Of a stretch of DNA of 64,000 nt, positions 3,352 to 39,728 are shown piece after piece. The notes under the pieces were generated by a model. The model saw nothing but the letters and a program-made list of their open reading frames with translations. It did no database searches and was not told the DNA's origin. This DNA comes from a bacterium (GTDB taxonomy: Bacteria > Patescibacteriota > Minisyncoccia > Portnoybacterales > GWB1-42-6): NCBI GenBank assembly GCA_043800535.1, contig JAZDMV010000002.1, forward strand, positions 11,378 through 75,377. The letters run 5' to 3'. A program made the position numbers and the translations under genes. Every line of letters begins with the position of its first letter. Position 1 is the first letter of the stretch.

Positions 3352-3482
3352 GAAAAATTGCCGAGCGACGAGTGAAACGAGAAGTTTACGAGGCAATTTT
3401 TAGTCGAGCGAATCTGATTTTATCAAAATTTTATCGCTGCGCGTGGTCTTTTGCTACTTTTCTGCCACCAGAAAAGTAGATA
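3352..3482 (+). repeat. intergenic repeat family D copy 2 with terminal hairpin gctacttttctgccaccagaaaagtag
   Basis: Near-identical core to 1882-2010. Confidence 0.6.
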
Positions 3483-4498: not shown

Positions 4499-4942
4499 TT
4501 ACCTAATTATTTTTAAAATATATTTATCAACAATTTCTCCGCTGCAAGCATAAAAGAAAACAATGTCTACAACCCCTTCCTTTTTCGGTGTAATAATAGT
4601 GTAATTATTTTTATGGCATATACTCGATCTTTTATCTACAAAACTAATATCATAATAATCGCTTGTTTTGGCACCAACAGGACACCCCCCGGGTGCACCA
4701 TCTTCTGGAACACAAATATCTTCTTCGTCAGTTCTTACAATAATACTCTCGCCAATTTTAACTGTCATATTATTTTCAATCCTCTGAAGCTTTATATCGG
4801 TTAATCTAAAATAAATTTTCAAACCAAAAAAACCAATAATTAAAGCTATAATTATTACAAATAATGCTTTAAGTTTTTTACTTCTCCAAAAGCTTGTTTT
4901 TTGTGGATTATTTGGTTGGGGCGTTTCCATGGTTTTTGTCAT
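4499..4942 (-). CDS. hypothetical membrane-anchored protein
   Basis: Single N-terminal TM helix (LKALFVIIIALIIGFFGLKIYF). The ORF-track start at 4990 reads through a repeat element, so I place the start at MTKTMETPQ (4942). Confidence 0.45.
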   Translation of the reverse strand: MTKTMETPQPNNPQKTSFWRSKKLKALFVIIIALIIGFFGLKIYFRLTDIKLQRIENNMTVKIGESIIVRTDEEDICVPEDGAPGGCPVGAKTSDYYDISFVDKRSSICHKNNYTIITPKKEGVVDIVFFYACSGEIVDKYILKIIR

Positions 4943-5037
4943 TCCTGCCCGCGCTACGCCGAAAGGCTTCGGCGAGGCGAACAAAAGCAAAAATTCAGAT
5001 TGTTTTTCTTCTGGATTCCGGCTTTCGCCGGAATGAT
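4938..5037. repeat. palindromic repeat family B copy (gtcattcc...ccggaatga termini)
   Basis: Termini gtcattcctgcc ... ggattccggctttcgccggaatga resemble copies at 19321, 22861, 26531 and 13294. Confidence 0.5.
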
Positions 5038-5046
5038 ACCAAAAAG

Positions 5047-15218: not shown

Positions 15219-15342
15219 TTTAAAATTTAGTTTCGAGAAAATCGCCATCCAAAAATTTTGTTTTAAATTCAGGCCGAGGCGAGCGTAAAATTTGCGTGTT
15301 TATGCCTTTGGGCCCCGCAGCAGCGGGGTGCATAGCAAATTT

Positions 15343-15425
15343 AGTGAGACGAGGCCTAGAATTTATCAAAATTTTATGGCTGGCGAGAGCTTTTTGGCTA
15401 CTTTTTGTCGACACAAAAAGTAGCT
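15343..15425 (+). repeat. repeat family D copy 3 (partial) with hairpin gctactttttgtcgacacaaaaagtagc
   Basis: Matches the tail of copies 1 and 2. Confidence 0.55.
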
Positions 15426-15448
15426 TAATAAATAATGAAATTTACTCA

Positions 15449-15541
15449 CTTACACCCCGTAAATCCCGCTACGCGGGACACGGCGTAAAGCCGCGAGGCG
15501 GCCACGCCGCTTTTCGCGGGGCAGGCGTCCACTATATAATA
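15449..15541 (+). mobile_element. about 95-bp GC-rich element inserted at the dnaE start codon; the 18-nt start segment is directly repeated on both sides
   Basis: atgaaatttactcacttacac at 15427 and atgcctaaatttactcacttacac at 15542 flank the insert. The first copy encodes MKFTHLH then hits a stop. The element shares cccgtaaatcc and gcgtaa.gc.cga blocks with 40196-40300. Confidence 0.5.
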
Positions 15542-18500
15542 ATGCCTAAATTTACTCACTTACACGTTCATAGTCATTACAGTCTTCTTGACGGTCTGCC
15601 AAAGATCGACGAGCTTATTGACCATGCGCTGGCGCAGGGAATGGATTCACTTGCCTTAACAGACCACGGCTCGCTTTACGGCGCAGTTGAATTTTACAAA
15701 AAAGCCAAAGCCAAAGGGCTAAAACCGATTATCGGCTCAGAAATGTATATTGCGCCGGGCGGCATGCTTAACAAGCGATCTAGAATTGACGACAAACGCC
15801 ATCATCTTGTCGTTCTGGTTAAAGACAAAACCGGTTATGAAAATCTCGTTAAACTTACAACCAAGGCATGGCTTGAGGGATTTTATTATAAACCGCGCAT
15901 AGACAAAGAGCTCCTGCGCCGGCATTCAGGGGGTCTGGCCGCCCTTTCTGCCTGCATAGTCGGCGAAATACCTTCGGCTATCAGAAATGGTGACCCCAAA
16001 AAAGCGGAGGCGCTGGCCGAAGAATACCAGGATATTTTTGGCAAAGGAAATTTTTTCCTGGAAATAGAACATCATCCTGGAATTAAAGAACAGGAACAGG
16101 TCAATCAGGAAATCATAAAAATCGGCAAAAAATTAAAAATTCCTATTGTCGCTACCAACGACGTACATTATTTAAAGCCCGAAGACGCCGAAGCCCAGGA
16201 TATCTTGATGGCGGTCAACACCAACGCCGCGCTTGATGCGGGCGAACGCCTCTCCATGCGTTCGGACGACTTTTCACTTAAATCGCCCCAGGAAATGGCT
16301 GATTGGTTTCCGGCCACACCCGAAGCGATTGAAAACACCCAAAAAGTAACTGGTCTGTGCAATTTTGATTTTACGCTCGGCAAAATCCAGCTGCCTGAAT
16401 TTAAAGTGCCATCCGGCAAGTCCGATTTTGAATTTTTAAAAGAACTTGCCTATTCCGGCATCAGCCGGCGCTACAAACAAACTTCCAAAGAAATCCTTGA
16501 TCGTCTGGAATATGAACTTGGCGTCATCAAGCAGACCGGTTTTGCTTCTTATTTTTTGATCGTCCAGGATTTCGTCAACTGGGCAAAGGAGAATGGTATT
16601 GTTGTCGGGCCAGGCCGCGGCTCAGCTGCGGGGTCACTGGTCGCCTATCTTTTAAACGTCACCGACATTGATCCCTTAAAATACGACCTCCTGTTTGAGC
16701 GGTTTTTGAATCCCGAAAGAATTTCTATGCCTGATATTGATATGGATTTTTCCGATATCAGGCGAGGCGAAGTGATAGATTACGTACGAAAGAAATATGG
16801 AGACGACCATGTGGCGCAGATCATTACTTTTGGGACAATGGCTGCCCGCGCCGCTATCCGGGATTCGGGCCGCGCCATGGGTTATTCCTACAACTTGTGT
16901 GACCAGGTGGCAAAAACCGTGCCCTTTGTTGTCGGCCAAACGCTCGAGCGCGCGCTGCATGAATCAATTGAGCTACACCAATTATATGATTCCGACGAAC
17001 AGGTTAAAAAATTAGTTGATACGGCCATGAAGCTTGAGGGCGTGGCGCGCCATGCTTCAACCCACGCCGCCGGCGTCGTCATCACAAAGGAGCCGCTTGA
17101 AAAAACCGTGGCACTCCAGCATCCAACGCAGGACGACGCCACAATTGTTTCTCAATTTGAAATGCACGCAATTGAGGATTTGGGCCTTTTGAAAATGGAC
17201 TTTTTGGGGTTGAAAACCCTGACGCAGATCGAAAACGCCATTAATATCGTCAAAAAAACCAAAGGAGAAACAATTGATTTGCCCAACCTGCCGCTAGATG
17301 ACAAAGAAACATTTAAGCTCCTGCAGGAAGGCAAGGCCACGGGAGTTTTCCAGCTGGAATCAGGCGGAATGAAAAGAGTTCTGCGCGAACTTAAGCCGAC
17401 CGAATTTGAAGACATAATTGCTATAGTTGCGCTCTATCGCCCTGGTCCAATGGACCTTATCCCGGAATTTATTGCCCGCAAACACGGCCTTAAAAAAATT
17501 GAATACCTGCATCCTTTACTTGAAAAAATCCTCAAAAAAACCTACGGTATCTGTGTATATCAGGAACAATTGATGGAAATTGCAAAAGAACTGGCCGGTT
17601 TTTCACTCGGCGAGGCGGATGTTTTAAGAAAAGCTGTCGGCAAAAAAATCAAAAAACTGCTGGATGAACAGCGCGAAAAAATGATCCAGGGAATGACGCG
17701 CGGCGGCATTGACACAAAAACCGCCGAAAAGATCTGGGAATGGATTGAACCATTCGCCCGCTACGGCTTTAATAAATCGCATGCCACCTGCTATGCATTA
17801 ATCGGCTATCAAACCGCCTATTTGAAGGCTCGTTATCCGACAGAATTCATGGTTGCCATCATGAATTCTGACGAAGACGACATTGAACGCATCGCCTTTT
17901 TGGTCAATGAATGCAATGCAATGAAAATAGAGGTCCTGCCACCCGATATTAATGAAAGTTTGGAAAGTTTTACTGTTGTCAAAGACGGAATAATCCGTTT
18001 CGGGCTGGCTGCGATAAAAAACGTCGGGCAAAATGTCGTTGAGGCGATCGTGCGAGAACGCAAGGCCAATGACCCCTATGCTTCAATCTCGGACTTTGTC
18101 GAAAGAGTGCGAGACAAAGATCTGAATAAAAAATCCCTGGAAAGCTTGGTTAAATGCGGGGCCATGGATAAACTCGGCGAACGCGGCCAGCTGCTTTTCA
18201 ATATGGAACATATCCTCGATTTTTCACGCGAAATTTCCAAATCAAAAATCAACGGACAAAGCGGTTTATTTGACGCACTGGCGGCCGATTCAAAAATCAA
18301 CGGCCTGCCACCGCTAAAACTGCAACCCGCGCCTGAGGCCGGCAAAAAAGAAAAGTTATCATGGGAGAAAGAACTACTTGGTCTTTATGTTTCAGAACAT
18401 CCCGTCAAAGAGTATCAGGCCTATATAGATAAAACAGCGCTCACCTGCTCGAAAGTTTCTTCGCAATTTGTCGGCAAGAAATTGGCCGTTGGCGGAATTA

Positions 18501-19320: not shown

Positions 19321-19388
19321 TGTCATTCCGGCCTTGAGCCGGAATCCAGATCCTAATTTTCTGGATTCCCGCTTTCGCGTGAATGACA
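19321..19388. repeat. palindromic repeat family B copy in thrS 5' region
   Basis: tgtcattccggccttgagccggaatcc ... ctggattcccgctttcgcgtgaatgaca. Confidence 0.55.
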
Positions 19389-19399
19389 GAAAAAATAAA

Positions 19400-21139
19400 A
19401 TGGATAAACAATCTAAACTTGATATATTAAGGCACTCAACTGCGCACATACTCGCCGCCGCGGTTTTAGATATGTTCCCCGAAGCAAAATTTGCCATCGG
19501 TCCGACAATTGAGGATGGCTTTTATTATGATTTTGATCTGCCGCGAACTTTAATTCCCGAAGACCTTCCGCTACTTGAAGAAAAAATGCGTGAGATTATC
19601 AAGCAAAACTCTCCATTTGAGCGCTCGGAAATTTCCGTCAAAAAAGCCCAGGAACTTTTTAAAAAAGCCAAACAGCCATATAAAGTTGAACTGATAAAAG
19701 ACCTAGTCAAAAATGAAAAAGCGAAAAATGTTTCGGTTTATAGAACCGGAAGTTTTGTGGATTTATGCCGCGGCCCTCACATTGATTCAGCCGGCGAAAT
19801 AAAATTTGATGCTTTTAAATTATTAAAAATCGCCGGCGCTTATTGGCGCGGCTCGGAAAAAAATAAAATGCTTCAGCGCATCTACGGCACGGCTTGGGAG
19901 AGTAACGCTGATCTTGAAACATACCTCCGAAAACTTGAAGAAGCCGAAAAGCGCGACCACAGAAAACTCGGCCAGCGCCTCGGATTATTTTTCTTTGATG
20001 AAACCGCGCCTGGCATGCCCTATTGGCTGCCAAAAGGCCTGCATATAATAAATTCCTTGATTGATTTTTGGCAGAAAGAACATCAAAAACGCGGCTATGT
20101 TGAAATTTCTACACCGCTTTTGAACAAAAAACAGCTCTATGAAACTTCGGGCCACTGGGAGCATTACCGAAAAGAAATGTTCCTTTTCCAAACCGAAGAG
20201 AAAGAAACCTACGCCCTAAAACCCATGAACTGCCCGAATGCCATGATCGTTTACAAACACGAGCCGCGCAGCTACAAAGAATTGCCCTTGCGACTTGGCG
20301 ACACAGATATTTTACACAGAAACGAATTAAGCGGAACTTTAAGCGGGCTTTTTCGTGTCCGCGCCCTCCGCCAGGACGACGCCCATATTTTTATCACCGA
20401 GGAGCAAATCAAGAGCGAACATGAAAACATTTTTGAAATTGCCGATCTCTTTTACTCGCTTTTTGACATTGACTACTATTTTCGCTTAAGCACGCGGCCG
20501 GATGAATTTATGGGTGATAAAAAGTTGTGGGAAAAAGCAGAAAAAGCGCTAGAAGACATTTTGAAAGCCAGCGGGAAAAAATATATTATCGGCGAAAAAG
20601 AAGGCGCGTTCTACGGCCCGAAAATTGATATCTTGATGAAAGATTCGCTCGGCCGCGAATGGCAGACAGGCACTATCCAGCTTGATTTTCAGCTGCCGCT
20701 TCGCTTCAACTTGACTTACACCGACCAGAACGGCAAAGATAAAACTCCGGTGGTAATACATCGTGTGATCTACGGGTCGCTGGAAAGATTTATCGGGATT
20801 TTGATTGAACATACTGCCGGCGCTTTCCCGGTTTGGCTGGCTCCGGAACAGGTCTGGATTCTGCCCATCGGCTCGCGCCACGAAGAATACGCTGTTAAAG
20901 TCGCTGAGGCATTAAAGACGCAAAATATCCGCATCACCGTCAAAAACGAGAATGAAACCATCGGCAAAAAAATCCGCGAAGGCGAAATGCAAAAAATCCC
21001 CTATTTATTAATCGTCGGCGACAAAGAAGTTGCCGCCGACTCCGTGGCTGTCCGCGAACGAGGCAAAGGTGACTTAGGACCGATGAAATTGGATGAATTT
21101 GAAAAAAAGGTCATAGACGAGATAAAAAATAAAAAATAA
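19400..21139 (+). CDS. thrS: threonyl-tRNA synthetase lacking the N-terminal TGS domain
   Basis: Starts near the HSTAHIL editing/SAD motif, then class II core and anticodon-binding domain. The upstream extension in the ORF track is a repeat read-through. Confidence 0.8.
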   Translation: MDKQSKLDILRHSTAHILAAAVLDMFPEAKFAIGPTIEDGFYYDFDLPRTLIPEDLPLLEEKMREIIKQNSPFERSEISVKKAQELFKKAKQPYKVELIKDLVKNEKAKNVSVYRTGSFVDLCRGPHIDSAGEIKFDAFKLLKIAGAYWRGSEKNKMLQRIYGTAWESNADLETYLRKLEEAEKRDHRKLGQRLGLFFFDETAPGMPYWLPKGLHIINSLIDFWQKEHQKRGYVEISTPLLNKKQLYETSGHWEHYRKEMFLFQTEEKETYALKPMNCPNAMIVYKHEPRSYKELPLRLGDTDILHRNELSGTLSGLFRVRALRQDDAHIFITEEQIKSEHENIFEIADLFYSLFDIDYYFRLSTRPDEFMGDKKLWEKAEKALEDILKASGKKYIIGEKEGAFYGPKIDILMKDSLGREWQTGTIQLDFQLPLRFNLTYTDQNGKDKTPVVIHRVIYGSLERFIGILIEHTAGAFPVWLAPEQVWILPIGSRHEEYAVKVAEALKTQNIRITVKNENETIGKKIREGEMQKIPYLLIVGDKEVAADSVAVRERGKGDLGPMKLDEFEKKVIDEIKNKK

Positions 21140-21671: not shown

Positions 21672-22850
21672 ATGAAATATTACATAATTACATATGGCTG
21701 TCAAATGAATGAAAGCGATTCTGAAAAGATCGTTGTTTTATTGCAGCGCCAGGGCCACAGACCCGCAAAATCAGAAGCTGACGCCAATTTGATCGTTCTT
21801 AACGCCTGTTCTGTGCGTCAGGCCGCCATGCATCGCGTCTACAGTAAAATAAATCAATATTCGGGTAAAAAGAAGGTAATTCTAGCCGGCTGCGTTTTGC
21901 AAAAAGACAAAAACGCGTTAAAGGAAAAAGTCAGCGAAATTTGGCATCCGGACAGCTATTTTGAATGCCCCTCAGTGTCATTGCGAAGCGCGCCGCCAGC
22001 TGGCGGCGCGCTGAAGCAATCCCGCACTAATACCTCCGTCCACGGGATTGCCACGCTCCCTCCGGTCGCTCGCAATGACGCGACGCCCGCCTATGTGCCC
22101 ATAATGACCGGCTGCAACAATTTTTGTTCTTATTGCGCCGTGCCTTACACGAGAGGACGGGAAAGATCACGGCCGGCGGACGAAATTATTGCCGAAGTAA
22201 AGGCGCTGGTAAAAAAAGGCCATAAAGAAATAATGCTGTTGGGACAAAACGTGAATTCGTATAAATCAAACAGCGTGTCATTGCGAGGAGCCACGTCTCC
22301 TGCGGGGCGACGCGGCGATCCCGACCGTTTACCGCCGTCCACGGGATTGCTTCGCTCCGCTCGCAATGACGTTAATTTTGCAGTTTTACTCAAAATCATC
22401 AACTCCCTCCCCGGCAATTTCCGTCTATCCTTTATGACCTCCCACCCCAAAGACATGTCGGACAAGCTTATTGCAACGATGGCCAAATGTGAAAAATTGG
22501 CAAAAAATCTGCACCTGCCAATTCAATCCGGCGACAATACAATTTTGCGCAAGATGAACCGACATTACACCACAAATCATTATCTGATACTGCTCAAAAA
22601 AATCCGCAAAGCGATTCCTGATATAAAAATTTCAACCGACATAATCGTCGGCTTCCCGGGCGAAACAAAAAAACAATTCCAAAGCACTGTCGCGCTGGCC
22701 AAAAAAGCCAAGTTTTCGGGCGCGTTTGTTGCCAAATATTCCCCGCGCCCCGGCACCGCCGCCGCCAAACTGAAAGACAATGTACCAGTTGAAGAAAAAA
22801 AACGACGTTGGCGGATTTTAGACACGTTGATTAATAAATTCGAGCATTAA
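21672..22850 (+). CDS. miaB: MiaB/RimO-family radical-SAM methylthiotransferase with two in-frame repeat-derived insertions
   Basis: MKYYIITYGCQMNESDSEKI MTTase N-domain, CNNFCSYCAVPYTRG radical-SAM cluster, TRAM end. Inserts SVSLRSAPPAGG... and SVSLRGATSPAGRRGD... are encoded by elements at 21975-22080 and 22275-22370. Confidence 0.8.
   Translation: MKYYIITYGCQMNESDSEKIVVLLQRQGHRPAKSEADANLIVLNACSVRQAAMHRVYSKINQYSGKKKVILAGCVLQKDKNALKEKVSEIWHPDSYFECPSVSLRSAPPAGGALKQSRTNTSVHGIATLPPVARNDATPAYVPIMTGCNNFCSYCAVPYTRGRERSRPADEIIAEVKALVKKGHKEIMLLGQNVNSYKSNSVSLRGATSPAGRRGDPDRLPPSTGLLRSARNDVNFAVLLKIINSLPGNFRLSFMTSHPKDMSDKLIATMAKCEKLAKNLHLPIQSGDNTILRKMNRHYTTNHYLILLKKIRKAIPDIKISTDIIVGFPGETKKQFQSTVALAKKAKFSGAFVAKYSPRPGTAAAKLKDNVPVEEKKRRWRILDTLINKFEH
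21975..22080. repeat. palindromic element family A copy 1, in-frame inside miaB (gtgtcattgcga...ctcgcaatgacg)
   Basis: Terminal inverted repeats. Shares ccgtccacgggattgc with copy 2. Confidence 0.7.
22275..22370. repeat. palindromic element family A copy 2, in-frame inside miaB
   Basis: gtgtcattgcgaggag ... gctcgcaatgacg. Confidence 0.7.
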
Positions 22851-22860
22851 CTAAAGTTTC

Positions 22861-22956
22861 TGTCATTCCGAGCGTGCGAGGAATCTCCCGCGTATGCGGG
22901 ACCCCGTTGCCGACATTCATCGGAAATCCTTCGGCGTAACGCGCCTCAGGATGACG
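22861..22956. repeat. palindromic repeat family B copy downstream of miaB
   Basis: tgtcattccgagcgtgcgaggaatctcccgcgtatgcggg ... caggatgacg. Confidence 0.55.
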
Positions 22957-25676: not shown

Positions 25677-27224
25677 CTATTTCAACCGCTTCTTCAAGAT
25701 TTCCTCAACCATCTGCGGATTGGCGCGGCCTTTGGTCGCCGCCATCACTTTGCCGATCAAAAACATCAGCGCTTTTTCTTTGCCGCCTTTAAACTCGGCC
25801 GCGGGCCCCGGGTTTTGAGAAATAGTTTCAGCCACCGCTTTTTCAAGTTCTTCCTCATCACTCACCTGCGCTATCCCCTTTTCTTCTATGACGTGCGACG
25901 GGTCAACACCTGTTTTAAACATTTCGGCTAAGACCGTCTGCGCGCCGCTTGAAGAAACAACGCCCTGCGCGGTCAGCTTTATAAATTCCGCAAAATTCTC
26001 GGCCGTAATTTTTAAATTTTCAAACGGCTGGCCTGATTGGGCAAGCAATTTCTGCAATTCCGTTATCAGATAATTTGCCGCCAGTTTCAGCGCTTTGACG
26101 CAGTCAATTTTTGGCTCGGCCGAGCATGCCCATTCTTTCAGTTCACTCGCCACCCGCTCAAAATAATCGCCCAGCGCTTTATTAACAACGAAAATTTCAA
26201 CGTCGCCATCTGGCAAATTATATTCTTCAACAAATCTTTTTTTACGACTAGCCGGCATTTCGGGCAAAGATGATAGTTCGGCAACAATCTCCGCAGTTTT
26301 TAATGGCGGCAAATCCGGCTCAGGAAAATAGCGATAATCATGCGCTTCTTCTTTGACTCGCTGGGAAACTGTCATCTGTTTTTCGTCAACCCATCCGCGC
26401 GTCTCCTGAATAATTTTTTCACCGGCTTCCAGGGCTTCGGCCTGCCGTTTTATTTCATAATCAATGCCCCGCTCAACCGCCCGGAAAGAATTCAAATTTT
26501 TTATTTCCACTTTAGTCCCTAAAGGCGCTCCGTCATTCTGAGGCAAAACCGAAGAATCTCCCAGCTTGTTTGGGATGAATCCCGCATTCGCGGGTGATTC
26601 CTCGCTACGCTCGGAATGACTTGTGGACGGTCGTAGACTAATATTCACCTCACACCTCATCTGGCCCTTTTCCATATCAGCGTCAGAAACCCCAAGATAC
26701 CTTAAAATAAGCTGAAGTTCCTGGCAGAATTTTTTGGCCTCTATGCCCGAACGTATATCCGGCTCTGTCACCAATTCCATCAGCGGCACGCCTGCGCGGT
26801 TCAAGTCAACCAAAGAATAATCAGTCCCTGCCGGATGCAACAATTTGCCCGTATCTTCTTCCAGATGTATTCTGCGAATTTTTATTTTACAGCCGTCAAT
26901 TTCCAGCCACCCGTTCTGCGAAAGCGGCTTGTCATACTGGCTTATCTGATAGCCCTTGGGCAAGTCTGGATAAAAATAGTTTTTGCGGTCAAATTTGGAA
27001 AATTCCGGAATTTCGCAGTTGAGCGCCCGCGCGGTCTGCAAGACCATTTTCACCGCTTCTTTGTTTGTCACGGGCAAACTGCCCGGCTGGCCTGTGCAGA
27101 CGGGGCAAATGTGGATATTGGGTTCGCCTTCCAAACCAAAACCATTCTCACATCCACAAAACATTTTTGTTTTGGTCTTAAGCTCAACATGAACCTCCAT
27201 TCCGATAACCGCTTCATATTTCAT
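25677..27224 (-). CDS. gatB: Asp/Glu-tRNA amidotransferase subunit B with in-frame repeat insert
   Basis: MKYEAVIGMEVHVELKT N-terminus. Insert RPSTSHSERSEESPANAGFIPNKLGDSSVLPQNDGAPL is encoded by the family B element at 26531-26630. Confidence 0.85.
   Translation of the reverse strand: MKYEAVIGMEVHVELKTKTKMFCGCENGFGLEGEPNIHICPVCTGQPGSLPVTNKEAVKMVLQTARALNCEIPEFSKFDRKNYFYPDLPKGYQISQYDKPLSQNGWLEIDGCKIKIRRIHLEEDTGKLLHPAGTDYSLVDLNRAGVPLMELVTEPDIRSGIEAKKFCQELQLILRYLGVSDADMEKGQMRCEVNISLRPSTSHSERSEESPANAGFIPNKLGDSSVLPQNDGAPLGTKVEIKNLNSFRAVERGIDYEIKRQAEALEAGEKIIQETRGWVDEKQMTVSQRVKEEAHDYRYFPEPDLPPLKTAEIVAELSSLPEMPASRKKRFVEEYNLPDGDVEIFVVNKALGDYFERVASELKEWACSAEPKIDCVKALKLAANYLITELQKLLAQSGQPFENLKITAENFAEFIKLTAQGVVSSSGAQTVLAEMFKTGVDPSHVIEEKGIAQVSDEEELEKAVAETISQNPGPAAEFKGGKEKALMFLIGKVMAATKGRANPQMVEEILKKRLK
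26531..26630. repeat. palindromic repeat family B copy, in-frame inside gatB (gtcattctgagg...ctcggaatgac)
   Basis: Terminal inverted repeats. Internal gaatcccgcattcgcgggtgattc hairpin. Confidence 0.65.
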
Positions 27225-27286
27225 AAAATCATAATAACACAATAATTCAACAGAAAAAAGAACCATCCATTGGATGGCTCTTTATA

Positions 27287-31068: not shown

Positions 31069-32172
31069 TTAAGATTCAGTCAAAATTTTATCAATTCTCG
31101 CCTTAATTTTATGCCCCTGACAATGTTTCAATATCCCAAAATATGACTGCAAGGTTTGACCAAAAGACGCTTCAGAGATCAGACCCGTCCGCAAACCTTG
31201 CCGCCTATTTATCATCTTCTTCAGTATTCTCTTTTTAGTTTTTGTCCGCAAAACCCGATAATACGGCAAAACTACATAGCCAAGAAAGTCAATCCCCTGA
31301 CGATACTTTCTGATTATTATTTTATCAGGATGTAAAGTTAATTTCAATCTTTCTTCAAGAAAATCGCTGATCAGCGGAATCAATCCGTTTAAATATTCTT
31401 CGTTTTCGCCCAAAATCACAAAATCATCGCAATAACGCAAATAGTATTTTTCTCTTAATCCGTGCTTAACAAATTGGTCAAGCTCGTTCAAATAGATATT
31501 GGCAAATAGCTGGCTGGTGACATTGCCAAGAGGCAAACCCTTGTTAGGCGATTTTTCAAAGCTTTTGATTATTGCTTCAATCAGCCATAAAATATTTTTC
31601 TCTTTGACTTTCTGCCTGACTAATTCCAACAAAATTTCATGATCAACTGAATCAAAAAACTTTCTAATATCGCATTTTAAAGCAAAAAGATCTTTTGTGT
31701 TATTTTGGCTTAATTTTCCGGCGAATTTTTCCAGTCGGCTGACTGCCCGATGTGTGCCCTTGCCCAAACGGCAAGAATATGAATCAAAGATAAAACTTTT
31801 ATCAAAAATTGGATACAAAACTCTAAATACGGCGTGGTGCAAAACTCTGTCGCGTACGCAAGCTTTGTGAATCCGCCTTGGCTTTGGGTCACATATTGAA
31901 AACGCGGTATAATGGGAGTGACAATAAGCTTTCGCTTTTAATTCATGATGGAGCTTGAATAAATTATCCTCTAAATTAAATTCAAATTCCTGAACGTCCG
32001 GTTTATTGCCTTTGCCTCGCTTAAATTCCCGCCAGGCCAAAAACAAATTTTCCAGCGAAATTATTTGCTCAAAAACTTTCCATCCTTCGGATGGTCGCCC
32101 GAAGGGCAATAACTTTTCACTTTTAACTTTAAACTCATGACTTATAACGCCCCCCCCCAGCGGGTTCAACAA
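31069..32172 (-). CDS. diversity-generating retroelement reverse transcriptase
   Basis: RT motifs: SICDPKPRRIHKACVRDRVLHHAV (motifs 1-2), LPLGNVTSQLFANIYLNELD (an SQ-type motif 4 that I recall as typical of DGR RTs), RYCDDFVILG (YxDD). Cognate TR/VR lie adjacent. The start may instead be a TTG about 60 nt downstream; a G9 tract lies at codons 6-8. Confidence 0.85.
   Translation of the reverse strand: MLNPLGGGVISHEFKVKSEKLLPFGRPSEGWKVFEQIISLENLFLAWREFKRGKGNKPDVQEFEFNLEDNLFKLHHELKAKAYCHSHYTAFSICDPKPRRIHKACVRDRVLHHAVFRVLYPIFDKSFIFDSYSCRLGKGTHRAVSRLEKFAGKLSQNNTKDLFALKCDIRKFFDSVDHEILLELVRQKVKEKNILWLIEAIIKSFEKSPNKGLPLGNVTSQLFANIYLNELDQFVKHGLREKYYLRYCDDFVILGENEEYLNGLIPLISDFLEERLKLTLHPDKIIIRKYRQGIDFLGYVVLPYYRVLRTKTKKRILKKMINRRQGLRTGLISEASFGQTLQSYFGILKHCQGHKIKARIDKILTES
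32150..32158. repeat. C9/G9 homopolymer at the RT 5' end / avd-RT divergent promoter
   Basis: acgc ccccccccc agcgg. The only run of this length I noticed in the window. Confidence 0.8.
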
Positions 32173-32188
32173 GTTTGAAGTCCCTGTT

Positions 32189-32506
32189 TTGCATAGAATT
32201 TTTGAGCTGTATAAATTATTTCACAAATGCCTGATATTATTCCCAAAACAAGAAAAATATACGCTGGGACAAAAAATAGAAAATACGATTTTGGAAACAC
32301 TTGAGCTAACCCTATCGGCAAGCTATTCTAATATCTACAAAAAGGAAATTCTAACAAAAGCAAATAATAAAGTTGACCTTTTGAAATATCTAATCCGGCT
32401 TTCCCACGAGACAGATTCTGTCAAAATCAAAAGTTGTCTGACGCTGGAAGAAATAATCATTGAAATCGGAAAAATGATTGGCGGCTGGCGGCGTTCTCTC
32501 AAATAA
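32189..32506 (+). CDS. avd: Avd-like accessory protein (four-helix-bundle family)
   Basis: 105 aa. LYKLFHKCLILFPKQEKYTLGQKIE and C-terminal EIGKMIGGWRRSLK resemble the FPK.EKY ... EIGKML.GLIKSLK pattern of PF05635/Avd proteins. Divergent from the RT, which is unusual. Confidence 0.65.
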   Translation: MHRIFELYKLFHKCLILFPKQEKYTLGQKIENTILETLELTLSASYSNIYKKEILTKANNKVDLLKYLIRLSHETDSVKIKSCLTLEEIIIEIGKMIGGWRRSLK

Positions 32507-32523
32507 AATTGGCTTTAACTTTG

Positions 32524-32554
32524 AAAAGAAGCCCCGTGTCTTACGGGGCTTCTT
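32524..32554. terminator. perfect hairpin gaagccccgtgtcttacggggcttc between avd and TR
   Basis: 9-bp stem. Terminator for avd. Confidence 0.5.
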
Positions 32555-32571
32555 TGACTATACTTAGCACT

Positions 32572-32691
32572 ACCGACAAACAAAAGACCGGAAGAATAGT
32601 TGTCGTTCGCGTTGCCCAGATTGCCCCTGTTGTCAAAGTTGAGCCTGTCATCATTGGCCTTGAAGTTAAGCGAATAGTCCGACGACTGTCA
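32572..32691 (-). repeat. DGR template repeat (TR), sense strand = minus
   Basis: 120 bp nearly identical to 32943-33062. Sense strand is Asn-codon rich: QSSDYSLNFKANDDRLNFDNRGNLGNANDNYSSGLLFVGS. Every mismatch to VR is at a TR adenine. Confidence 0.85.
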
Positions 32692-32886
32692 ATAATTTGT
32701 TCTTTCCCGCCCCAAGCCACCAGAAGAGCATAAACTGCGCTTCTTGTATTTTATTCGGTCCCGGCTGGACCATAGAAAAGGACAAGGAGTGCTATAAATA
32801 TATTCGGCGACCTTGATTTGTTAAAAACCAAGATACATTAGCCTACGAATTTATTATACCAAAAAAATAAAAAGGGCGTAACGTGA

Positions 32887-32916
32887 TACTCATCGTTACG
32901 CCCTTGCAAAGATTCA
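32887..32916. other. 10-bp-stem hairpin gggcgtaacg-N10-cgttacgccc about 25 bp downstream of VR
   Basis: Position matches the DGR hairpin/cruciform reported to promote mutagenic homing. Also serves as the target-gene terminator. Confidence 0.5.
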
Positions 32917-32935
32917 AAGATCAAGGGACAAAGAA

Positions 32936-33898
32936 TCAACTCCCGACAAACAAAAGACCGGAAGAATAGCTGCCGCTCGCGCCGCCCAGATTGCCCCTGC
33001 TGCCAAAGTAGAGCCCGCCATCATCGGCCACGAAGCAAAGCGAATAGTCCGACGACTGCCAACTTAAAGCCGATAAATCCAATCCTGGCGTGTACCAATC
33101 TCTGGCAAGGACATCTGGATACATCGCCAGTGCGATGGCCGTGTCAAAGCCGCCAGCCATCAGTAAAGATTCCGGAAGATGGAATAATTGTTCCCGGCTT
33201 GCCAGAACAGAAAACCCTTGCAAGGGGTTAGGGAAATAAATCGCGACTACATAGCTCTTTATCATATTAAAAACGAGTTTCTCATGCCGCGTTCCTTCCA
33301 CGATACCCACCTTGCCCTCCAGCTCGTTTTCCCGGTAACTATAAAACTTCCTGCCGGGAAATTGTTTCTCGAAAGAAAATTTAACGGCCGGCAGAAAAAT
33401 CCGTTCCAGGGCCCGACCATAGTCCTCAATGCTTTCCAGCTTCGGCAGGATAATCGGCAGATAAACGCCATTGAGTAAATTGACAATCTTTTTGTTGTCT
33501 TTAATTTGGCCAATCAGCTCGTTGGCTCTGCCTTCGAATTCAGCAACTGACATAAATAGGCCGGGCTTGAAAGCTTCCTGAAAATAGACAAGCCGATTTG
33601 CATAACCATCAATGGTATTCAAGCTCGGCTGGACAAGATAAAATTTCTTGTCCGGATCGCAAACCGCGTTTTTCAAGCCCTTTGCCGGAATTACGCGGCC
33701 GTTTTTGTCCGCGAGCTTCGAAACTCTTTCAATGAGTTTAACTTCAAGCTCGTCCCTCAAAAGTGCATCAAGCTTCTCTTCGTCGCCACCGCAAACCTTG
33801 CTTAAAATAGCGACAATCTGGCCCCCGGTTCGTCCTCTCAAAATTTCTAAAGAGCTTCCCATATCACACCTCCTGGTTTTGAGCTTTTTATTGCCCAA
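32936..33898 (-). CDS. DGR target protein (320 aa) with C-terminal variable region
   Basis: C-terminus ...WQSSDYSLCFVADDGGLYFGSRGNLGGASGSYSSGLLFVGS overlaps VR. No signal peptide seen. Fold unassigned. Confidence 0.7.
   Translation of the reverse strand: MGNKKLKTRRCDMGSSLEILRGRTGGQIVAILSKVCGGDEEKLDALLRDELEVKLIERVSKLADKNGRVIPAKGLKNAVCDPDKKFYLVQPSLNTIDGYANRLVYFQEAFKPGLFMSVAEFEGRANELIGQIKDNKKIVNLLNGVYLPIILPKLESIEDYGRALERIFLPAVKFSFEKQFPGRKFYSYRENELEGKVGIVEGTRHEKLVFNMIKSYVVAIYFPNPLQGFSVLASREQLFHLPESLLMAGGFDTAIALAMYPDVLARDWYTPGLDLSALSWQSSDYSLCFVADDGGLYFGSRGNLGGASGSYSSGLLFVGS
32943..33062 (-). repeat. DGR variable repeat (VR) encoding the last 40 codons of the target gene
   Basis: 16 mismatches to TR counted by eye, all at TR sense-strand A positions (A->G about 13, A->T about 3). 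The 3'-terminal about 27 nt are identical (IMH-like). Confidence 0.85.
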
Positions 33899-36329: not shown

Positions 36330-38459
36330 TTATCTTCTAATTCCCCACCCTTTCTCTTCCACTGCCTTAATAATACCCGTCATTAATTCGTTAACTTCTT
36401 TATCTGTTAAGTTCCGCTCGTCGGACTGAAATGTCAGACGGAAAGCAAAACTTTTTTTATTGTCAGCCACGCCTTCGTAAATATCAAAAAGGTCGGTATC
36501 TTGCAGAAGCTGCCCGCCGGCTGTTTCTATGACGTTCAGCACGCTTTCGGTCTTTGTGTCGTTATCTACCAGAACGGCCAGATCGCGCATGATGGCGGGA
36601 TATTTTGAAGGCGGCATATACATTCTTTCCTCCGAGGCGAGCCGCATTACTTTTGCAAAATCAAGCTCAAACGCAGCCACTTTTTCTTTTATTTCGCAGG
36701 ATGACAAAATATCTTGTTTAATTTCTCCGATCCAGCCGACTAATTCATCACCCGATTTAATTTCCGCCACGCGCGACTGATGCAAAAATTCCAGCCACCA
36801 CTGTTTTTGCGCGATGGCGTCATCAAACCATATATCGCCGATTCCCAATTTTGAAAATAAAATTTCGAGCCCGCCTTTGAGCTCCAGCAAGTTTTCTGTT
36901 GGCTTTGCGTTTTTATGACAGACAACCGCCCCGATCTTATTTTCCTCAAAACGCTCCCCTGCTTCTCTCCTGAAAACGTGGCCAATTTCAAAAAGCCGTA
37001 TATTATCAAAAAATTTAATATTTTCTCTTACGTTCTTCAAAAGATTCACAATTAAAGTCGGCCTCAAATATTTCTGGTCCTGTGAAAAAGGGTTTTTTAT
37101 TTCAATGTGGTTTGAAAAGTCAAATATTTTGCGGTCGCTTTCGGAAATAAACGAATAATTATAAACTTCATTCCAGCCGGCGCCAACCAAAATATCTTTT
37201 ATTTTATCTTCATAAATAAGTGACTCTTCGCGCAGGGCCGGGATTAAAATACCTCTTGGGGTATCAATCGGAATTTTGTCATAGCCGACGAGCCGTACCA
37301 CCTCTTCGGCTAGATCTTCCTGAGCCTGCAAGTCAAGCCGGCTTGTCGGGATTGAGGCTTCAATAAAGAGCTTACCGTCTTTTTTAATGATTTTGGATAA
37401 AATACCGAGTTCTTTTAATACTTCTGTCATCTTTTCGTCTTTAATATCTACACCCAGCAGCCCCTGCGCCCAGGCCACATCCATTAATACTTTTCGCAGT
37501 TTAGTTTTTTTCTCACACACATCAATCACTCCACTTGCGACTTTTCCCCCGGCAAATTCAACCATAAGAGACAAAGCACGCTCCAGCGCCTCAATTGTCA
37601 ATTCCGGATCAAGCCCGTTTTCAAAGCGCGTGGAAGCGTCTGTTTTTAAATTAAATGCTTTTCTTGTGCGGCGGATATTTGTCGGCTCAAAATTAGCGGA
37701 TTCAATTGCCACAATCTTTGTCTTTTCATCAATTTCCGGGCCTTCTCCTCCTTTTATGCCGGCGATGCCGATGGCGACTTTTTCATCCGCGATCACTAAA
37801 TTTTGCGGACTCAAATTGTATGATTTGCCTTCAAGCGTCGTAATTTTTTCGCCTTCATTTGCTCTGCGCACAATTATCTTTCCAACCGTGTCATTGCGAG
37901 GAGTCTGCGACGAAGTCTCCCTTTGGGAGATCTCCCGAAGGGAGACAATCCCGAGAACGGCTATGGCGCGAGGCGCCACCTTATCAACGTCAAAGGCATG
38001 CAGCGGCTGGCCGGTTTCCAGCATCACATAATTTGTGATATCAACAATATTTGAGATCGGCCGCAGACCGCATGCTTGCAGCCGCTCCTGGAACCACTTT
38101 GGCGACGGAGCAACCTTTATATCCGTTAAAACACGCATGCTGTAGCGCGGGCACAGGTCCGGCACCTGAACTTCAACCGAAATAAAATCTTTGGCTTTGA
38201 ATTTTTTGTCCTCGGACAGCTTCACTTTTGGGCCTATAAATCCGACACCTGAAATCGCGGCTAACTCCCTGGCAATTCCGATATGCGACATGCAATCATG
38301 CGCGCGGTTTGATAAAATCTTTATGTCCAGCACTGAATCCTGCCCGAATTTTTCGCAGCTTTCCACCTCAAACGCATGCATGGTCAAAAGCTCGACCATT
38401 TTTTCAGGCGCCAGAGATTTTTTTAGATATTCATTTAGCCAGTTGGCGGAAAATTTCAT
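36330..38459 (-). CDS. pheT: phenylalanine--tRNA ligase beta subunit with in-frame repeat insert
   Basis: 709 aa with B3/4, B5 and anticodon-binding regions. Insert VSLREISQRETSSQTPRNDT is encoded by the element at 37888-37975. Confidence 0.8.
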   Translation of the reverse strand: MKFSANWLNEYLKKSLAPEKMVELLTMHAFEVESCEKFGQDSVLDIKILSNRAHDCMSHIGIARELAAISGVGFIGPKVKLSEDKKFKAKDFISVEVQVPDLCPRYSMRVLTDIKVAPSPKWFQERLQACGLRPISNIVDITNYVMLETGQPLHAFDVDKVAPRAIAVLGIVSLREISQRETSSQTPRNDTVGKIIVRRANEGEKITTLEGKSYNLSPQNLVIADEKVAIGIAGIKGGEGPEIDEKTKIVAIESANFEPTNIRRTRKAFNLKTDASTRFENGLDPELTIEALERALSLMVEFAGGKVASGVIDVCEKKTKLRKVLMDVAWAQGLLGVDIKDEKMTEVLKELGILSKIIKKDGKLFIEASIPTSRLDLQAQEDLAEEVVRLVGYDKIPIDTPRGILIPALREESLIYEDKIKDILVGAGWNEVYNYSFISESDRKIFDFSNHIEIKNPFSQDQKYLRPTLIVNLLKNVRENIKFFDNIRLFEIGHVFRREAGERFEENKIGAVVCHKNAKPTENLLELKGGLEILFSKLGIGDIWFDDAIAQKQWWLEFLHQSRVAEIKSGDELVGWIGEIKQDILSSCEIKEKVAAFELDFAKVMRLASEERMYMPPSKYPAIMRDLAVLVDNDTKTESVLNVIETAGGQLLQDTDLFDIYEGVADNKKSFAFRLTFQSDERNLTDKEVNELMTGIIKAVEEKGWGIRR
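37888..37975. repeat. palindromic element family A copy 3 (partial), in-frame inside pheT
   Basis: gtgtcattgcgaggagtctgcgacgaagtctccctttgggagatctcccgaagggagacaatcc. Confidence 0.6.
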
Positions 38460-38460
38460 A

Positions 38461-39465
38461 TTAAAACTGTTTTAAGAAGCGCATGTCGCCAAAATTCAAC
38501 AGCCGGATATCGTTGATCTTATATTTCATCATGACGAGCCGGTCCAGGCCCAAACCAAAAGCAAATCCCTGCCATTCATAAGGGCTGTAGCCGGCGGATC
38601 TAAAAACGAAAGGATGCACCATGCCCGCCCCCGCCATTTCAAGCCAGCCAGTCTGGCCGCAGACACGGCACCCTTTGCCTCCGCAAACAGCGCACGACAT
38701 ATCAACCTCAAAGCTTGGCTCCGTGAATGGGAAATAGCTTGGCCGCAAACGAATTTTGACTTCCTGTCCGTAAAGACGTTTGAAAAATTCAAGCATCACT
38801 GCCTTAAAATTTGCCACGGATATATGTTTGTCAACCATCAGGCCTTCCACCTGATAAAACTGCCAATCGTGAGAAGCGTCGGTTGCGTCGCGCCGGAACA
38901 CGCGACCCGGCACTATTATGCGCAAAGGCGGGTTGTGTTTTTCCATGTAACGCACCTGCATAGGAGAAGTGTGTGCGCGCAGAAGCATTTCATCGCCTAT
39001 CTCAAAAGTGTCCTGCATGTCGCGCGCCGGATGATCTTTGGGAAAATTGAGCGCCTGAAAATTGTAATAATCAGTCTCCATCTCCCGACTATCAATAACC
39101 GAAAATCCCAGCGACTGGAAAATTTCTTCAACCTGCCGCATAACTTGAGTCCTTGGATGTAAGTGCCCCGCCGGCAATTTTTTGCCCGGCGCCGTTATAT
39201 CTATCCACTCCTTAGCCGCCTCAAGCGACTTGCCGAGCTCCTTTCTTTTTTTCTCAATCATTCCGTCAAGCTCGTGTTTCAGCTGATTGGCAAACTTGCC
39301 GACTTTTTGCCGTTCTGCCTCGGCCATATCTTTTAAGCCACGCAAAATTTCCGTAAGTTCGCCCTTACGGCCAAGATACTTTATTTCCAGCTTCTCCAAT
39401 TCCTCTAGGTTTTTGACGCCAAGCACTTCTTTAAGCGCCGCGTCTCTTAGCTCTTTTAAATTCAT
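38461..39465 (-). CDS. pheS: phenylalanine--tRNA ligase alpha subunit
   Basis: Class II core (motif 2/3). Start placed at MNLKELRDAAL. The ORF-track N-terminal 47 aa is a read-through of repeat element A4. Confidence 0.85.
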   Translation of the reverse strand: MNLKELRDAALKEVLGVKNLEELEKLEIKYLGRKGELTEILRGLKDMAEAERQKVGKFANQLKHELDGMIEKKRKELGKSLEAAKEWIDITAPGKKLPAGHLHPRTQVMRQVEEIFQSLGFSVIDSREMETDYYNFQALNFPKDHPARDMQDTFEIGDEMLLRAHTSPMQVRYMEKHNPPLRIIVPGRVFRRDATDASHDWQFYQVEGLMVDKHISVANFKAVMLEFFKRLYGQEVKIRLRPSYFPFTEPSFEVDMSCAVCGGKGCRVCGQTGWLEMAGAGMVHPFVFRSAGYSPYEWQGFAFGLGLDRLVMMKYKINDIRLLNFGDMRFLKQF

Positions 39466-39477
39466 GCCAGATACTTT

Positions 39478-39603
39478 ATCATTGCGAGCAAAGCGAAACA
39501 ATCCCGTAGTTTTTGCTACATGCCACGGAATTGTCTCCCTTCGGGGGATCTCTCGAAGGGAGACCGCGTCGCCCCGATTAAGTCGGGACTCCTCGCAATG
39601 ACG
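39478..39603. repeat. palindromic element family A copy 4 (tcattgcgagcaaagcg...ctcctcgcaatgacg) upstream of pheS
   Basis: Complete terminal inverted repeats. Internal ggagaccgcg/gtctccc hairpin shared with copy 3. Confidence 0.65.
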
Positions 39604-39728
39604 CAAAAAGCTTTAAATTCTTACCTTCATTTTAACCTGTTTTAACGCAAATTGCAACCCCAAAAAGTGGATAAAAACAAATAAAAATACGGCTAGAAAA
39701 CCGTAATCCGTACCCTCCTTAAAAACGG

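Follow-up and report, generated by a model that had tools for sequence, protein, structure and literature searches.

What is the short palindromic repeat that lies both inside pheT, the gene for the beta subunit of phenylalanine-tRNA ligase, and just ahead of pheS, the gene for the alpha subunit, and has it moved between such places? We address this question in a window of 64,000 nt from contig JAZDMV010000002.1 (assembly GCA_043800535.1), and positions throughout are those of the whole window unless the locus of a relative is named. The host is an ultra-small groundwater bacterium of the Candidate Phyla Radiation (CPR) near Candidatus Portnoybacteria. Its PheT protein matches an NCBI protein from a metagenome-assembled genome at 100%, and the next matches are Portnoybacteria proteins at 64–72% identity. 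The four copies of the repeat, A1 to A4, probably belong to one non-autonomous palindromic family (the A family), with A3 as a decayed arm in pheT, A4 as an intact non-coding copy ahead of pheS, and A1 and A2 in a gene for a MiaB-like radical S-adenosylmethionine (SAM) protein. Sequence comparison establishes that the family was copied into unrelated places of this genome at different times.

Copies and anatomy of the A family

The terminal 10-mer TCATTGCGAG occurs six times in exact form in the window, against 0.17 occurrences expected, and none of 100 shuffles reaches six. The positions of these sites (Table 1) imply that A4 carries both terminal repeats and A3 only one. The preliminary description had regarded the copies as one element family; the kinship of A3 and A4 and the completeness of A4 stand, but A3 proves to be a truncated copy with a single arm. 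In a direct alignment, A3 corresponds to the first arm of the reverse-complemented A4, running from the terminal repeat through the internal palindrome to an AATyCCG tail, past which the similarity stops. The two arms differ by a single 13-nt deletion in A3, which takes out a small hairpin. The internal gtctccc...gggagac hairpin, noted earlier as common to both copies, is a palindrome of 32 nt (GTCTCCCTTyGGGrGATCTCyCGAAGGGAGAC) that is 91% identical between them and sits at the same junction, within a wider match of 47 nt at 87%. This palindrome is an independent small repeat, which in four metagenome contigs from groundwater stands by itself, outside A-type arms, and its idealized form folds as DNA at -16.2 kcal/mol (z = -6.3). 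Its occurrence at the same junction in A3 and A4 implies that both descend from one composite copy.

Table 1 Positions of the repeat copies and of the genes and signals around them in the 64,000-nt window
Feature	Positions	Strand	Description
pheT	36330..38459	-	Phenylalanine-tRNA ligase beta subunit, 709 aa; Pfam B3_4, B5, tRNA_synthFbeta, FDX-ACB
pheS	38461..39465	-	Alpha subunit, 334 aa; ATG at 39465 (MNLKELRD)
Spurious N-terminal extension	39466..39606	-	47 codons; longest open reading frame (ORF) reading through A4
Promoter-like site	39629..39657	-	TTGCAA, 17 nt, TAAAAT; upstream of A4; consensus match only
Terminator-like hairpin	39688..39705	-	After the upstream 124-aa membrane-protein ORF; consensus match only
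MiaB-like radical-SAM gene	21672-22850		392 aa; carries A1 and A2 in frame
Exact TCATTGCGAG sites	22069, 22278, 22360, 37891, 39479, 39592	-, +, -, +, +, -	In the order of the positions
Copy A1	21975..22080	+	Two-arm, in frame in the MiaB-like gene, site 1; reads SVSLRSAPPAGGALKQSRTNTSVHGIATLPPVARNDA
Copy A2	22275..22372	+	Two-arm, in frame in the MiaB-like gene, site 2; reads SVSLRGATSPAGRRGDPDRLPPSTGLLRSARNDV
Copy A3	37888..37975	-	Single arm, truncated, in frame inside pheT
Sole terminal repeat of A3	37888..37901		TGTC tag, GTGTCATTGCGAGG; gene strand reads PRNDT
32-nt palindrome nested in A3	37915..37946		Gene strand reads VSLREISQRET
Copy A4	39478..39603		Complete two-arm copy, pheS leader; both terminal 10-mers exact
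32-nt palindrome nested in A4	39533..39564		Internal junction same as in A3

A full copy measures 90–125 nt and consists of two inverted arms paired as one long branched hairpin, which is closed by terminal inverted repeats of 12–13 bp and within which small hairpins may nest. Compared with shuffled sequences, the folds of A1 (z = -6.8), A2 (z = -4.3) and A4 (z = -5.9; -60.7 kcal/mol as RNA) stand out clearly, and that of A3 only modestly (z = -2.5). Each arm begins with an unpaired CGTC/TGTC tag, continues with ATTGCGAG...GCAAT and ends in a CC(A)-type tail. The single arm is a 5-bp stem (ATTGC/GCAAT) around 10–60 nt, the commonest interiors being 12 and 18–20 nt. In the window, the tags are TGTC/CGTC in both A1 and A2, TGTC in A3, and CGTC together with a degenerate ATC in A4.

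Related copies were collected from IMG/VR and from species-representative (GTDB) genomes with the pattern TCATTGCGAG-N70-100-CTCGCAATGA, which matched at least 60 IMG/VR stretches and at least 120 sites in the representative genomes. Because the pattern demands two inverted ends, every collected copy is a dimer, and the sample does not speak to how far dimers predominate. Together with the window, the collections yield 193 unique copies, on which the statistics of the element class are based. The outer tetranucleotide tag, taken as the two bases ahead of TCATTGCGAG plus its start, is CGTC in 67% and TGTC in 26% (left end, CGTC 130 and TGTC 50; right end, CGTC 126 and TGTC 51). Past the inner GCAAT, the tails of 359 arms read CCA in 154 (43%), CTC in 103 (29%) and CCC in 34 (9%). 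The two tails of a copy co-vary: of 147 copies, 102 have at least three complementary bases in their tails, where about 43 would be expected. The spacers between the arms have a median of 33 nt and range from 13 to 74 nt.

Among the matches listed, A-type termini occur in more than 10 phyla. Their hosts include Bradyrhizobium, Rhodopseudomonas, Desulfobacterales, Legionellales, Candidatus Tisiphia and Helicobacter canis; Chloroflexus, Anaerolineae, Mucilaginibacter, Pedobacter, Ignavibacteriota and Planctomycetota; and, within the CPR, Parcubacteria, Daviesbacteria and Kuenenbacteria. CPR bacteria share the 12-nt terminus YGTCATTGCGAG with Bradyrhizobium, Chloroflexus, Bacteroidota and phage-like contigs.

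In-frame copies in PheT and the MiaB-like protein

At A3, the translation of pheT reads ...HAFDVDKVAPRAIAVLGIVSLREISQRETSSQTPRNDTVGKIIVRRA..., and the copy accounts for about 30 extra residues (about 161–192) in the B3/4 (editing) domain of the protein. The earlier claim that A3 lies in frame within pheT is borne out by comparison, which identifies it as an insertion. In an alignment of 30 sequences, the window protein and 29 orthologs, the empty site (HAFDVDKVGG-KKIIVRRA) is present in 17 of the 29 orthologs, including the closest ones (67–74% identity). Moreover, the HMMER alignment with the beta subunit of Thermus thermophilus phenylalanyl-tRNA synthetase (PheRS) splits at query residues 160/195, corresponding to chain residues 267/272. 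The insert lies six residues after the histidine of the HAFD motif, which aligns with Thermus chain residue 261 and which we take to be the editing-site histidine of PheRS. In the AlphaFold2 model of PheT, with a mean predicted local distance difference test (pLDDT) score of 84, residues 164–190 have pLDDT values of 30–42 and no secondary structure, and are placed between the confident strands 154–157 and 193–199. The loop encoded by A3 is predicted to be disordered. The peptide VSLRE of PheT, previously attributed to the terminal repeat, is encoded by the internal palindrome, and the terminal repeat gives only PRNDT.

The MiaB-like protein contains two such inserts. In the aligned MiaB-like orthologs of 315–321 aa, both sites are empty (WHPDxYFEC-TPF...AYVPIMTGC and LLGQNVNSY-KDGKxNF), and the alignment to the Bacteroides MiaB structure splits at the A2 site (199/234). 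A1 recurs at the same junction in the related proteins P0241 (whose insert is 83% identical), P0125 and P0244, and so must be an old copy passed on by vertical descent. These three proteins lack A2, which among the proteins compared is found in this genome only; given this absence and its perfect termini, it is the younger of the two. In a further protein, P0123, site 2 instead holds an A-type insert.

Every genic copy keeps the reading frame, lacks stops and falls in a loop. Translated, one end of the copy gives SLR... and the opposite end ...(A/P)RND. As read from the sequence, the terminal repeat leaves all three frames open when it stands at the 5' end, and at the 3' end it closes one frame (TCG CAA TGA). 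In other genomes, 33 copies lie within long ORFs and their 3' ends are read in either of the open frames, typically as ...RND or ...LAMT; in-frame copies are found in YchF (Candidatus Daviesbacteria), in the ATPase domain of a histidine kinase, in a radical-SAM protein and in an O-antigen ligase. The insert peptides have no Pfam match, and the concatenated A1 and A2 peptides have no match in a word-indexed protein database. An exhaustive HMMER search with the A1 peptide returned four matches, namely two orthologous MiaB fragments, one tandem repeat array and one chance SdrD-like match. A public 'protein' of 211 aa (P0242) consists entirely of tandem related repeats (GGAPKQKRLNPGIVGIAILTSFEW...), and is probably a spurious ORF over a repeat cluster.

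The absence of stops also bears on the idea that the inserts in PheT and the MiaB-like protein are removed before the enzymes function, in the manner of introns or inteins, and are not tolerated in the mature enzymes. CPR genomes carry introns in their rRNA genes, an intein is present in gyrB of the relative L004, and the inserts form very stable RNA structures, all of which would suit removal. However, the inserts have 27–37 residues, far below the size of an intein, no splicing motifs are present, and no ribozyme or intron family matches. Since genic copies that are all in frame and stop-free are expected only if they are translated, we regard removal as highly improbable.

The same loops are occupied by other repeats in related proteins. 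At the PheT position of A3, other orthologs contain unrelated repeat-encoded peptides, such as ESAISNNQFSISKQIPNS, TRIATNDTN and SVIPSEARDP...RGRNDN, the last of which belongs to another CGTC-type family. At recurring loop positions of PheT and MiaB orthologs from the CPR, unrelated repeat peptides are likewise observed (ISNFQFPISKQIPNS, TRIATNDTN again, PPPTPSSSEEG/KGRRGV and TDYRLPTT), and PheT has at least eight variable sites of this kind. A hot spot created by sequence-specific targeting was considered and set aside, because the PheT and MiaB loops in question are filled by unrelated families; that selection favors permissive loops would be a simpler account. The window also holds a sister-family CGTC-type dimer (26531-26621), which lies in frame in gatB (25677-27266, minus strand) and has the arms ATTCCGAG/ATTCTGAG. 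It inserts STSHSERSEESPANAGFIPNKLGDSSVLPQNDG between ISLRP and LGTKVEIKNLNSF, and the Pfam GatB_N match is split in two.

The pheS start and the A4 leader copy

The pheS stop lies one base ahead of the pheT ATG, which is the usual coupled layout. The longest ORF of pheS (38461-39606, 381 aa) starts at a TTG, passes through A4 and reads (M/L)RHCEESRLNRGDAVSLREIPRRETIPWHVAKTTGLFRFARNDKVSG ahead of MNLKELRD. The preliminary description had moved the start to MNLKELRD and named a shared extended N-terminus in orthologs as the finding that would speak against it. The comparison agrees with the moved start. In syntenic loci, the four PheS orthologs compared (333–337 aa) all start at the MNLKELRD position, the closest (L001) reading MDIKKLRDEALKELLGAKNLEELEKLEIKYLGRKG, and none shares the extension. 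In addition, the 334-aa protein is exactly the NCBI entry MFH0852039.1, and the 381-aa form has no NCBI record. The 47-codon extension is an artefact of calling the longest ORF.

It is very unlikely that the true PheS has 381 aa, its N-terminus being extended in this lineage by residues that the repeat encodes. The frame is open from the TTG at 39606, and RPE-1, a Rickettsia palindromic element (RPE), has been reported at the N-terminus of some expressed Rickettsia proteins. Against it, apart from the orthologs and the NCBI annotation, stand the start itself, a weak TTG within the terminal repeat, and the frame in which the repeat would be read (HCEE...ARND), which is unlike that of any genic copy.

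A canonical CGTC-type dimer of repetitive extragenic palindromes (REPs) at 19321-19402 (TGTCATTCCGGCCTTGAGCCGGAATCCA ... TGGATTCCCGCTTTCGCGTGAATGACA) ends 11 nt ahead of the thrS ATG (19400), and the longest thrS ORF starts from a TTG at 19334 within the repeat; the NCBI form has 579 aa (MFH0852020.1). The layout is the same as that of A4 and pheS. Its unit TGTCATTCCGGCCTTGAGCCGGAATCCA (19321-19348) forms an 8-bp stem with a 5-nt loop (-8.7 kcal/mol, z = -5.4). At the 5' end of dnaE (15296-15560), another repeat family, also present at 1882-2007 and 3355-3440, overlaps the first 87 codons ahead of the PHP domain, and the longest-ORF start of dnaE is probably over-extended.

A4 ends 13 nt from the pheS ATG. 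If the promoter-like site upstream of it is real, A4 lies in the 5' untranslated region of pheS. The 124-aa membrane-protein ORF further upstream is syntenic with L004. This position, between a promoter-like site and the ATG, together with the very stable fold would suit a cis-regulatory leader RNA of the pheST operon, whether it worked as an attenuator, resembled a T-box or stabilized the mRNA; the genic copies would then be incidental. Such a role also has a parallel in the CGTC-type dimer ahead of thrS, and REPs in 5'-proximal positions have been proposed as possible elements of post-transcriptional control (PMC3733652). Several observations make it unlikely. Rfam, run on the whole window at the gathering threshold and permissively on the two regions, gave nothing beyond tRNAs and chance microRNA-like matches, with no Rfam family, T-box included, at A4; the Phe leader model reaches 17.7 bits, where its gathering score is 55. 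Copies of the family are also present in coding regions and, relative to transcription, in both orientations: the arm with the palindrome is the 3' one in pheT and the 5' one ahead of pheS. Moreover, the relatives have unrelated repeats, or nothing, at this junction: a 136-nt MITE (miniature inverted-repeat transposable element) with a TATGC target duplication in L001 and L002, a 'TACGAAA' palindrome in L004, and an empty junction in L003, where the upstream gene ends 4 nt short of the ATG. A generic effect of the A4 hairpin on mRNA stability or translation may nevertheless exist.

The MITE of the relatives provides a clean filled/empty pair of a different family. The assemblies L002 (2552-2692) and L003 (2549-2556) encode identical PheT proteins and differ by the 136-nt element, whose terminal repeats are CAGGTAGTAGAAATTCGAC. 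In L002 it sits exactly at the pheS start codon, and the TATGC duplication doubles the ATG; in L001, the end of the same MITE adjoins the pheS ATG. Other insertions are found around these genes, namely a small PD-(D/E)XK gene (PDDEXK_3) between pheS and pheT of L001 (1126-1542), a gene for a four-helix bundle of the '23S rRNA IVP' type, which lies between nusG and rplK of L001 (6839-7162), and the gyrB intein of L004 (6298-9765). They add to the evidence that selfish elements have inserted around this one conserved block of genes.

Spread of the family and its relation to known systems

The preliminary description had held that the family is mobile and is tolerated inside essential genes. Comparison, rather than direct observation, supports this view, through the empty sites in MiaB-like orthologs, the sharing of A1, the restriction of A2 to this genome and the separate A-type insert of P0123. 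Mobility of the classical MITE kind does not follow from it, as the elements leave no target duplications. Direct repeats that span the ends of a copy, measured on the 168 for which flanks are available, have the same length distribution as in shuffled pairings, which indicates the lack of a target duplication.

These data bear directly on the possibility that the family is a classical MITE, that is, a deletion derivative of an insertion sequence (IS) with GTCATTGCGAG ends, mobilized by a DDE transposase that recognizes the inverted repeats at its ends and leaves a target-site duplication. The size of 90–125 nt and the terminal inverted repeats of 12–13 bp would fit, and the TATGC-duplicating MITE at the pheS ATG of a relative is genuine; the L002/L003 pair implies that MITE-type elements are active in this lineage. 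We nevertheless consider this origin quite unlikely for the A family, since direct repeats are no commoner at its flanks than in shuffled pairings and its 'terminal repeat' opens with the CGTC/TGTC tag typical of REPs. No transposase is encoded in the elements collected with these ends or among the window ORFs scanned. As possible autonomous parents, just three arm pairs have a loop long enough for an ORF (385–412 nt); one of the loops holds a small helix-turn-helix ORF and none a transposase. On a viral contig (L063, 6117-6501), an A-type element with a 385-nt loop encodes a helix-turn-helix protein of about 97 aa from its first Met, which may be cargo or coincidence; similar ORFs lie near copies in five loci.

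The reading of A1 to A4 as copies of one non-autonomous palindromic family has its own difficulties. No filled/empty polymorphism was found for the A family, the nearest relative being at about 70% protein identity, and mobility is inferred by comparison. No transposase or other mobilizing gene was found among the 40 window ORFs scanned with Pfam, nor any mobilizing gene within 1.5 kb of copies in 184 loci, and no dedicated enzyme has been reported for CGTC REPs (PMC3733652). A lone A-type arm forms no stable hairpin (-2.7 kcal/mol, z about 0), unlike canonical CGTC REPs. In PheT, about the first nine residues of the insert (APRAIAVLG, about one third) match no part of A4, and the translation of the insert is predicted from the sequence. 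When the ORFs up to 1.5 kb from copies were clustered all against all, no enzyme recurred; the clusters consisted of structural proteins of phages and gene transfer agents and of high-GC ORFs that are spurious. A phmmer search with an approximate IS200 TnpA sequence as query had no match among 8,974 ORFs of all loci, which is a weak negative.

On the favored reading, the copies would spread by a single-strand reaction, either cut-and-paste or copying, that recognizes hairpins and does not duplicate the target, with the mobilizing enzyme supplied in trans. Such a reaction would be akin to the mobilization of REPs and of REPINs, their hairpin-forming doublets, by IS200-type (HuH, tyrosine) transposases. 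Genic copies would persist only through selection against all insertions that disrupt the frame or the fold. The unrelated repeat families in the same PheT and MiaB loops of other orthologs would fit such purifying selection.

A broader proposal is offered tentatively: the A family may represent a previously undescribed, pan-bacterial branch of CGTC-tagged repeats, whose conserved terminus would imply one conserved mobilizing enzyme or host factor and frequent horizontal transfer; in the CPR, it and several further repeat families would remodel identical surface loops of essential enzymes over and over (PheT, MiaB, GatB, YchF). If so, repeat insertion would be a systematic source of lineage-specific protein insertions in tiny CPR genomes. 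The observations extend the classic RPE phenomenon of Rickettsia to the CPR, where the same loops are hit repeatedly by different repeat families. Repeat-encoded loops inflate apparent protein novelty, and calling the longest ORF in repeat-rich CPR genomes leads to false N-terminal extensions (pheS, thrS and probably dnaE). The near-identical ends in many phyla provide a good handle on the enzyme that moves CGTC-tagged repeats.

Further repeats are present in the window. Intergenic CGTC/TGTC-tagged dimers lie at 22861-22956, just past the stop of the MiaB-like gene, and at 4937-5045, just downstream of the transketolase stop and upstream of the ORF 4499-4990; in total, 20 tagged hairpin candidates were counted, against about 9 expected from shuffles. 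In a diversity-generating retroelement (31069-33898), the minus strand encodes a reverse transcriptase (31069-32172, RVT_1) and the plus strand a bAvd accessory protein (32189-32506); the element also has a pair of 124-nt repeats that are 86% identical (32569-32692 and 32939-33062). The second repeat is at the 3' end of the ORF 32936-33898 (minus strand), which is likely the variable target gene of the retroelement.

Among known systems, REPINs resemble the A family in combining two inverted short repeats and a spacer into one long hairpin, in being non-autonomous and in leaving no target duplication. They reportedly are mobilized by REP-associated tyrosine transposases (RAYTs), as Bertels and Rainey are said to have described in 2011. 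They differ in having a GTAG tag, in place of the CGTC tag of the A family, and a single-copy RAYT gene flanked by repeats. As a cognate gene of this type, no IS200-like ORF was found near A-family copies, the test being weak with its approximate query, and we know of no RAYT-like gene for CGTC elements.

Classical MITEs (ERIC, Correia/NEMIS, Chunjie; PMC10969869) are likewise small, with terminal inverted repeats, stable transcript hairpins and occasional in-frame genic copies. They differ in their target-site duplication and in having a parent IS with the same ends (PMC10969869), neither of which the A family shows in the material searched; no autonomous IS with A-family ends is present in 1.5 Mb of loci or in the window. 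A 2024 paper on conserved MITEs in Nucleic Acids Research does not mention the A family. A literature search by sequence string returned unrelated primers only, and in the literature searched, which covered few papers from subscription journals, no description of the A family or of in-frame repeats in the CPR was found.

In-frame palindromic repeats in essential genes have been known from Rickettsia since 2000, and REPs within genes from 2013 (PMC10969869, PMC3733652). As summarized in these sources, RPEs (Ogata et al. 2000, 2002) measure about 100–150 bp, lie in frame in unrelated housekeeping genes and add peptides considered compatible with the protein fold (PMC10969869, PMC3733652). The A family agrees with them in its palindromic in-frame inserts in unrelated genes and in the fold-compatible peptides of PheT, of the MiaB-like protein (twice) and, for the sister family, of GatB. 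In the same summaries, RPE-4 and RPE-6 end in CGTC, and the host genome is small, as here. The host phylum differs, and the sequence family is different as far as the descriptions of RPEs allow a comparison. A-type termini do occur in a Rickettsiaceae genome, that of Candidatus Tisiphia (L104 and L136).

The closest system is that of the CGTC-tagged REPs (Di Nocera, De Gregorio and Rocco 2013, BMC Genomics 14:522, PMC3733652), which have a CGTC/TGTC (also CCTC) tag, a stem starting with AT and a CCA tail, and which mostly form inverted dimers with structured spacers. The survey found them in five phyla, mainly Alphaproteobacteria; the dimer spacers are 20–100 bp and often have complementary ends; some copies lie in genes, including tRNA synthetase genes, and apparent N-terminal copies are probably extragenic (PMC3733652). 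CGTC-1 corresponds to Rickettsia RPE-6 and CGTC-4 to RPE-4 (PMC3733652). The peptides listed are VIPAKAGI/DSRLRGND for CGTC-1, VIPGLDPGI/DGRVKPGHD for CGTC-3 and VIPVLDTGI for CGTC-4 (PMC3733652). The A-family peptides (SLRG, ARND) and the DNA motif ATTGCGAG...GCAAT are absent from the supplementary lists of CGTC-1 to CGTC-4 (PMC3733652), a comparison made on the entries of these lists.

The A family differs from these REPs in its arm, which has a 5-bp stem and an interior of 10–60 nt, whereas CGTC units have an 8–9-bp stem and a 4–5-nt loop, and in its CPR host and the wide distribution of its termini among the matches listed. It shares with them the unpaired CGTC/TGTC outer tag, a stem that starts A-T, T-A (ATTGC/GCAAT) and a CCA-type tail. 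The copies collected with the two-ended pattern are inverted dimers with spacers of 13–74 nt and complementary ends, and A3 is a singleton. The A family also shares the location in genes, a tRNA synthetase gene among them, and at false N-termini, and the lack of a dedicated transposase. On these features, we place the A family beside the four families described so far, as a related but separate family of REPIN-like dimers with a CGTC tag.

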